Below are positions 98 through 363 of a DNA stretch of 555 bases, in pieces. Where the stretch lies: the sequence record EF517107.1; one strand, given 5' to 3'. The notes under the pieces are model-generated. The model saw only the letters and a program-made list of their open reading frames with translations. It was not told the DNA's origin and searched no databases. Origin of the DNA: a phage. Made by a program: the position numbers and the translations under genes. How positions within the stretch are numbered: the first letter of the stretch is position 1; each line of letters opens with the position of its first letter.

Positions 98-107
98 AAG
101 GGAGGAG
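98..107 (+). promoter_or_regulatory. Ribosome-binding site (Shine-Dalgarno) for the downstream small ORF
   Basis: Purine-rich AAGGGAGGAG with core GGAGG at 101-105, 6 nt before the ATG at 112; strong match to the anti-SD and typical of T7 late-gene translation initiation regions. Confidence 0.75.
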
Positions 108-111
108 ACTC

Positions 112-261
112 ATGTTCCGCTTATTGTTGAACCTACTGCGGCATAGAGTCACCTACCGATTTCTTGTGGTACTTTGTGCTGCCCTTGAGTACGCATCTCT
201 TACTGAAGACCTCAGTTCACTGGAGTGTGTCGTTTGCTCTATACTCACTTGTAGCGATTAG
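112..261 (+). CDS. 19.5: Small hypothetical protein, 49 aa, T7 gene 19.5-like (function unknown)
   Basis: ATG at 112 preceded by GGAGG with 6-nt spacing; open frame to TAG at 259-261; in-frame upstream stop TAA at 79-81, so 112 is the first in-frame ATG. Hand translation: MFRLLLNLLRHRVTYRFLVVLCAALEYASLTEDLSSLECVVCSILTCSD. Length and position about 240 bp upstream of the terminal repeat match T7 gene 19.5 as I recall it; identity not verified by alignment. Confidence 0.8.
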   Translation: MFRLLLNLLRHRVTYRFLVVLCAALEYASLTEDLSSLECVVCSILTCSD

Positions 262-343
262 GGTCTTCCTGACCGACTGATGGCTCACCGAGAGATTCAG
301 CGGTATGATTGCATCACACCACTTCATCCCTATAGAGTCAAGT

Positions 344-363
344 CCTAAGGTATACCCATAAAG
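344..363. repeat. Imperfect direct repeat, unit A (CCTAAGGTATACCCATAAAG)
   Basis: Shares CCTAAGGT..ATACC..TAAAG with unit B at 381-400, differing by small indels; carries the heptamer CCTAAGG at 344-350. Confidence 0.6.

Follow-up and report, generated by a model that had tools for sequence, protein, structure and literature searches.

The right end of the phage record EF517107.1 raises the question of what a reading frame of only 49 codons, gene 19.5, does for its phage, and whether the protein encoded there is a fair representative of the natural one. The analysed stretch of DNA, called the window below, comprises 555 nucleotides of one strand, 5' to 3'. A sequence-only reading had described its product as a Leu/Cys-rich micro-protein resembling gp19.5, with a hydrophobic core too short for a canonical membrane helix and, possibly, a small metal-binding fold. 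Gene 19.5 has no biochemical function assigned, although T7 is among the best-studied phages, and its deletion costs fitness. The gene is mutated repeatedly when the lysis system is damaged, and solving its function would fill a gap in the model of T7 lysis, a process known to go beyond the simple pairing of a holin with an endolysin. In our opinion, held with only slightly more confidence than doubt, gp19.5 is a late, abundant, single-pass micro-protein of the inner membrane that modulates the holin step of lysis.

The whole window corresponds to the right end of phage T7 (98.9% DNA identity, NC_001604 39278-39832). It starts 49 bases past the phiOR promoter, placed at 39229 in the T7 record, and includes gene 19.5 (39389-39538). 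This is the final annotated coding sequence of that record, in agreement with the earlier statement that no further gene precedes the genome end. Seven open reading frames (ORFs) of at least 20 amino acids were listed in the window, and a frame of 49 codons is by itself unremarkable. The product of ORF 112-261, MFRLLLNLLRHRVTYRFLVVLCAALEYASLTEDLSSLECVVCSILTCSD (49 amino acids), was recognised by three family models, namely NCBIfam NF040465 T7_gp19.5 (78.9 bits against a cut-off of 33), Pfam DUF5465 (33.3 bits against a cut-off of 25) and PHROG 2193 (E = 2.9e-22 over the full length), in each case about 9 bits under the wild-type protein. The DNA identity and the NF040465 score bear out the naming of the product as gp19.5.

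Six point differences separate the window from the T7 reference (Table 1), five of them being G:C to A:T transitions. The six are absent from every complete phage genome in the collection, the best full-length match over positions 85-300 being 97.7%, and an exact-protein contig look-up found no assembly encoding the exact window protein. The protein is identical to ABR22987.1 / UniProt A9XLB5_BPT7, deposited as a 'hypothetical protein [Escherichia phage T7]'. In the accession run ABR22985-22997, nine entries are variant T7 19.5 proteins with A23V, G26E, T31I, G32E, S39F, S39C and S48T in various combinations. G26E occurs on several deposited T7 haplotypes, including P0001 and P0008 besides the window allele, and codon 39 was changed in two ways, to Cys in the window and to Phe in sibling T7 variants. 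The six differences look like the result of mutagenesis or of laboratory passage or evolution of T7, not of natural divergence. Both the gene and the exact allele are already catalogued, and the window adds little to this knowledge beyond the G26E allele.

The window allele shares 46 of 49 residues with T7 gp19.5, UniProt entry Y195_BPT7, and all three in-gene differences are non-synonymous. The residue counts given in the sequence-only reading were exact (12 Leu; Cys at 22, 39, 42 and 47; basic R3, R10, H11, R12 and R16; acidic E26, E32, D33, E38 and D49). E26, E32 and C39 are missing from wild-type T7, and because they come from mutations, the CVVC spacing, two of the five acidic residues, one of the four Cys and the core of nine residues are specific to this allele. 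In the window protein, FLVVLCAAL (residues 17-25) is the longest central uncharged stretch, and the conclusion drawn from it, that no canonical transmembrane helix would fit, turned out to be an artefact of G26E. In the wild type 16 uncharged residues (17-32) follow one another, a helix is modelled over residues 12-31, and membrane spans have been predicted by TMHMM in published work. Caution is necessary here: the CVVC motif and the added acidic residues, like the short core, belong to a mutated laboratory allele and are uninformative on the natural protein.

The natural protein was approached through 35 loci: T7 itself, viral contigs (19, of which one repeats the T7 genome) and phages from GenBank (15). 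The annotated records belong to Teseptimavirus, Teetrevirus, Berlinvirus, Przondovirus, Eapunavirus, Helsettvirus, Ningirsuvirus and Pifdecavirus. Residue conservation was counted over 34 distinct homologous coding sequences. Conservation across T7-like phages had been proposed as a check in the earlier reading, and it was found that the frame of gene 19.5 is open in all 35 loci, at identities down to about 37%. An AGGAGG-type site lies 5-9 nucleotides ahead of the aligned start in most of them, two Pseudomonas phages having a weaker GGAG farther upstream, and the aligned start codon is ATG, GTG or TTG. H11, F17, L18, V20, G26, E38 and C42 are invariant in 34 of 34 homologues. Close to this level are R12 and T14 (33/34 each), position 15, always Tyr or Trp, and position 16, always Arg or Lys. 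A second Cys at 47, or 48 in one clade, is nearly invariant and stands 5-6 residues past C42. At positions 24 and 28 only the small residues Ala, Ser and Thr occur. For each of the seven invariant residues two or three synonymous codons are in use, which argues for selection on the protein. Within the T7 clade, the proportion of non-synonymous differences (pN) was 0.046 versus 0.128 for synonymous ones (pS); across genera the median pN/pS was about 0.7. Thus, gp19.5 appears as a fast-evolving protein with a fixed core.

Set against this alignment, the window allele keeps six of the seven invariant residues, G26 being replaced by Glu, and despite this loss it is a mutant of a family member because its DNA is 98.9% T7. 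Position 32 is Gly in 17 homologues, Asp in six, Glu in four, Gln in three, Thr in two and Ala in two, and position 39 is Ser, Ala, Thr, Val or Tyr, never Cys.

The location of the gene is constant: it stands past the large-terminase gene 19 and ahead of the right terminal repeat, the same order being kept in 16 annotated relatives, some of which have an inserted HNH endonuclease gene. The promoter phiOR is annotated upstream of 19.5 in T7, T3 and BA14, and fPS-26 has an unnamed promoter in the same place. A profile search of 1.84 billion representative proteins gave 12 clusters of the gp19.5 family, three of which (P0027, P0035 and P0036) are frame-shifted or truncated just past G26. As a separate observation, two of these three resemble Klebsiella-phage versions and one an Ebrios-type version; errors of sequencing may account for them, or else a natural loss of the C-terminal tail. 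The family is narrow and tolerates occasional disruption, which fits a non-essential gene. Judging from the comparative sequence data, gene 19.5 is shown to be a real, conserved gene for a 49-residue protein of the T7 subfamily (Studiervirinae).

The architecture of the protein may be described as four parts. The beginning of the chain is amphipathic, with a hydrophobic moment of 0.50 and a mean hydrophobicity of -0.21 over residues 2-12, and residues 2-9 differ in sequence between genera with their hydrophobic or amphipathic character kept. Then comes the near-invariant basic motif H-R-x-T-(Y/W)-(R/K)-F-L. Past its [RK]-F pair, 12-16 uncharged residues are found across the family, arranged around the invariant G26, with a Gly/Ala/Ser/Thr fraction of 29-60% in the homologues. 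The last part is the acidic tail. The contrast between a basic N-terminal and an acidic C-terminal side, noticed earlier in the window protein (+4 over residues 1-24 and -5 over residues 25-49), is a feature of the family, in which the charges are +4/+5 versus -1 to -3.

Structure prediction, also among the checks proposed earlier, was carried out with AlphaFold2 and a 15-sequence alignment. The model contains three helices, 2-9, 12-31 (20 residues) and 34-47, at modest confidence. A fold search of BFVD with this low-confidence, all-helical model gave no match, and a profile search of the PDB gave only chance matches to antibody signal peptides. Membrane spans were predicted by TMHMM for T7 gp19.5 (PMC2680503) and for the AP5 orthologue (PMC4283147). 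According to the positive-inside rule, the protein would have a single-pass topology with the N-terminus inside and the C-terminus out, so that E38 and the Cys pair would lie outside the cytoplasm. Small residues on two helix faces, one formed by positions 24 and 28 and the other by G26, would provide surfaces of the kind used in helix-helix packing.

The connection between gp19.5 and lysis comes from published genetics. T7 without the holin gene 17.5 regained faster lysis, and gp19.5-A24D was the sole strongly compensatory change (Heineman, Bull and Molineux 2009, PMC2680503). The substitution was predicted to destroy the membrane segment of gp19.5, and another one, E38G, arose in an endolysin-disrupted T7 line (PMC2680503). 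A24D and E38G were both seen once more in T7 with an independently constructed holin deletion (Xu et al. 2021, PMC8365609), and 19.5 mRNA was up 1.7- to 4.5-fold in that study. In wild-type T7 the 19.5 transcript exceeds all others in abundance at 25 min (PMC6938266). Phage T7 without 17.5 still lyses, and therefore there is room for a second holin-like activity.

Deletions are consistent with a dispensable but useful gene. The removal of 19.5 together with the M-hairpin is described as giving viable phage with late lysis and plaques of reduced size (Kim and Chung 1996 / Kim et al. 1997, as cited in PMC2680503). A seamless deletion of 19.5 only, an experiment of the type suggested in the sequence-only reading, gave much smaller plaques and a decrease of the burst from 224 to 152 (PMC12153263), and the gene was also removable in a genome-reduction screen (PMC9825161). 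The description of gp19.5 as truly uncharacterised is accordingly valid for databases, which give no function (PHROG 2193 'unknown function', Pfam DUF5465), and fails for the literature, where deletion phenotypes and compensatory substitutions tie the gene to lysis timing.

The A24D and E38G alleles (PMC2680503, PMC8365609) are, like the window allele, laboratory-derived missense changes in 19.5. A24D is similar to G26E in that an acidic residue enters the central part of the predicted membrane segment and hydrophobicity falls to a comparable extent, and S39C of the window affects the residue adjacent to E38; the window substitutions differ from the published ones in their exact positions. The uncharged stretch of 16 residues in the wild type is reduced to nine in the window allele and to seven in A24D, and the best 19-residue Kyte-Doolittle mean falls from 1.59 to 1.35 and 1.31, respectively. 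The window allele is probably defective in insertion because G26E places a charge in the middle of the helix and the loss of hydrophobicity is nearly the same as in A24D. As a side observation, the nine distinct laboratory-derived substitutions (A23V, A24D, G26E, T31I, G32E, E38G, S39F, S39C and S48T) are all located in residues 23-49, and none in residues 1-22. With the mutational target sizes taken into account, such a distribution, clustered at 23-26, 31-32 and 38-39, has a probability of about 0.01 (a hand calculation on a pattern noticed post hoc), and it agrees with natural variation, where conservation is highest in residues 10-21.

Putting these data together, a mechanism may be proposed. 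Wild-type gp19.5 would insert into the inner membrane as a single-pass N-in/C-out helix and, at a late stage of infection, would modulate the membrane (holin) step of lysis without being essential. The modulation would probably proceed through helix-helix packing of gp19.5 with itself or with another lysis protein. A charge in the middle of the helix, G26E like A24D, would prevent or weaken membrane insertion, making the window allele one of lost or altered function. Leads for further work provided by the alignment are the invariant H-R-x-T-Y-R-F-L motif, invariant G26 in the small-residue-rich helix, invariant E38 and, in the tail predicted to be periplasmic, the conserved Cys pair.

A number of points weigh against this interpretation or against parts of it. 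No direct report of membrane localisation, topology or protein detection for gp19.5 was met in the literature searched. The segment is short and of borderline hydrophobicity (Kyte-Doolittle 1.2-1.96 across the family), and the mean predicted local distance difference test score (pLDDT) of the AlphaFold2 model is a modest 65.7. The genetics are not simple, the effect of A24D on lysis being an acceleration when the holin is missing and a delay of 2 min in an otherwise wild-type background (PMC2680503). The decrease of the burst in the clean 19.5 deletion is unexpected for a pure lysis-delay defect. Homology to the T7 holin gp17.5 was rejected (hhalign probability 0.1%), and the PHROG 4712 'holin' family gave a weak match to wild-type T7 (E = 0.032) and none to the window; two of 20 gp19.5 family members match it (E = 0.03-0.11), and the match was treated as compositional similarity. 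As to the history of the allele, full-text literature searches did not find the source paper of ABR22985-97, and the origin in a laboratory population is what we infer. Selection on the three substitutions of the window was rejected: of the 70 G:C to A:T changes that gene 19.5 allows, 44 (about 63%) are non-synonymous, therefore three non-synonymous changes out of three have a chance probability of roughly 0.3 and are not evidence of selection.

The comparison with holins and antiholins, such as the class II holin gp17.5 of T7 and class III proteins with one transmembrane domain, shows both likenesses and differences. Like them, gp19.5 is small and late, is predicted to have a membrane helix, ends in a charged tail and is genetically tied to lysis timing. 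The Gly, Ala, Ser and Thr content of the segment would also be compatible with pinholins and with signal-anchor-release (SAR) segments, which are weakly hydrophobic and releasable. The C-termini of holins are typically basic. The tail of gp19.5 is acidic, unlike the typical holin C-terminus, and gene 19.5, in another difference from holins, is not situated beside the endolysin gene. It may be concluded that gp19.5 is not demonstrably a holin and that the apparent resemblance is limited to size, timing, predicted topology and the content of small residues. A bolder version of the lysis interpretation, which we consider rather unlikely, makes gp19.5 a representative of a distinct class of lysis-clock micro-proteins. 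In such a class a weakly hydrophobic helix rich in small residues would pack through its A24/A28 and G26 faces, the periplasmic tail with E38 and the pair of C42 and C47-48, possibly forming disulfide-linked oligomers, would tune the firing of the holin, and charges in the helix (A24D, G26E) would switch gp19.5 off.

Among the explanations that do without a lysis function, an accessory role in concatemer processing or DNA packaging at the right end deserves to be considered first, although we regard it as unlikely. According to this explanation, gp19.5 would work with the terminase and the processing signals and not in the membrane. Such a role agrees with the position of the gene, which invariably follows the large-terminase gene 19, precedes the right terminal repeat and adjoins two non-coding blocks conserved across genera, as it does with the basic character of the invariant H-R-x-T-Y-R motif and with the suggestion that 19.5 may help to generate the M-hairpin (Kim et al. 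1997, as cited in PMC2680503). The loss of burst and plaque size in the clean deletion would also fit a defect of maturation. It is difficult to reconcile with this role the very hydrophobic composition (12 Leu and 5 Val of 49 residues), the membrane span predicted in two orthologues and the absence of similarity to nucleic-acid-binding families in Pfam, or in the PDB by sequence. Moreover, the substitutions were selected specifically in holin- or endolysin-defective backgrounds in two independent studies.

It is also improbable, in our estimation, that gp19.5 is an inner-membrane micro-protein with a role outside lysis, for example, in superinfection exclusion, late membrane energisation or countering a membrane-associated defence of the host, and that its effects on lysis are indirect. 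The evidence on architecture serves this explanation as well as the lysis one, the very high late expression is compatible with it, and the dependence of the sign of the A24D effect on the background would be easier to understand if that effect were indirect. No data support any specific role of this kind, and the recurrence of identical substitutions in lysis-defective lines speaks against it as well.

The chance that gp19.5 is a small Cys-based metal-binding fold, as the sequence-only reading had allowed, is slight indeed. The window protein does have four Cys, including C39-x-x-C42 and C47, but C39 is unique to the window allele (Ser in T7 and Cys in none of the 34 homologues), position 22 has Cys in the T7 clade only, in 16 of 34, and only C42 and one further Cys (47 or 48) are conserved. 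There is no match to a zinc-binding family of Pfam, and the AlphaFold2 model is all-helical, without a knuckle or loop at the Cys residues; metal binding as a family property is refuted by the alignment. Finally, it is very unlikely that the frame has no function as protein and is kept open by overlapping DNA or RNA signals such as leader structures and packaging signals, for although the region is rich in conserved non-coding signals, the gene is dispensable and three clusters are disrupted past G26, the synonymous codons of the invariant residues, the switching of the start among three codons with the ribosome-binding site retained, the frame open in every locus down to about 37% identity and the restriction of the hairpin at that site, mostly no stabler than shuffled sequence, to the T7 clade all stand against it.

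Table 1. Positions of the features of gene 19.5 and of the differences from T7 in the 555-base window
Feature	Position	Strand	Remarks
Gene 19.5, mutant allele G26E/G32E/S39C	112..261	+	ATG start, 49 codons and TAG
Shine-Dalgarno site GGGAGGAG	100..107	+	Core GGAGG 101-105, six bases 5' of ATG
N-terminal amphipathic helix, residues 2-9 (FRLLLNLL)	115..138	+	AlphaFold2 helix, low confidence
Residues 10-18 (RHRVTYRFL), most conserved family motif	139..165	+	N-terminal side of hydrophobic segment
Predicted membrane-spanning segment, residues 17-32 (wild type FLVVLCAALGYASLTG)	160..207	+	In the window broken by E26, ends at E32
Acidic C-terminal tail, residues 33-49	208..258	+	Invariant E38 and C42; second Cys 47 (48 in one clade); about 17 residues
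Codon 26, GAG (Glu) vs T7 GGG (Gly)	187..189	+	Charge on invariant Gly in the middle of the hydrophobic segment
Codon 32, GAA (Glu) vs T7 GGA (Gly)	205..207	+	Within natural variation
Codon 39, TGT (Cys) vs T7 TCT (Ser)	226..228	+	Creates CVVC spacing
C90T	90		5' of gene 19.5
G188A	188		Inside gene 19.5, G26E
G206A	206		Inside gene 19.5, G32E
C227G	227		Inside gene 19.5, S39C
G293A	293		Downstream, non-coding
G547A	547		Terminal repeat

The non-coding surroundings of the gene contain conserved elements of their own. Two blocks 3' of 19.5, at 285-345 and 465-500, are conserved across T7, T3, AP5, Ebrios, Tarrare, KpV289 and phiEap-1. The first reads roughly AGGGATTC...ACACCAC.TCATCCCT.TAGAGTCAA, and the second, CCTTTAAAATATACCATAAAAATCTGAGTGACTA, adjoins the terminal repeat on its left. 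Both blocks are probably signals for the processing and packaging of the right end. In the first block, G293A alters a base at which five of the six other phages have G. Positions 501-555 of the window are the start of the right terminal repeat and are equal to genome bases 1-55 except for G547A; if the left copy in the same isolate is wild type, the two terminal repeats would differ.

The 28 codons past the TAG (window 259-348) are open and in frame with 19.5, reading GLPDRLMAHREIQRYDCITPLHPYRVKS, and in a metagenome protein of 78 amino acids (P0004) the stop is replaced, so that 19.5 and the downstream frame are fused. Read-through or a separate ORF at 280-348 was considered and rejected as a gene: only close relatives of T7 keep the frame open, its ATG lacks conservation, and in other genera the frame is interrupted. 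Most likely, the downstream open frame is a by-product of the conserved DNA block.

An mRNA hairpin was predicted at 86-134, in which the Shine-Dalgarno site is paired with codons 2-4. Its energy is -17.4 kcal/mol in the window (z = -3.0) and -15.0 in the wild type (z = -1.9), the hairpin being stronger in the window because C90T adds a base pair. A re-test with mononucleotide shuffling gave z between -1.5 and +1.5 in 32 of 32 distinct sequences. As a conserved element the hairpin was rejected: the near-identical T7 clade is the only place where the fold is seen, and there its stability does not significantly exceed that of shuffled sequence. A search of Rfam gave one sub-threshold chance match, and no sigma-70 promoter or terminator signals were found above shuffled controls.

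Short repeats of the CCTAAAG / CCTAAGG type occur at 344, 381 and 517, among other places, in the regions 343-401 and 517-545, and we take them to be the classic short repeats of T7 genome ends. Small palindromes are also present, TCCTAAGGTATA / TATACCTAAAGA at 343-354 and 390-401 and GTTCCCCCATAGGGGGTACC at 523-542.

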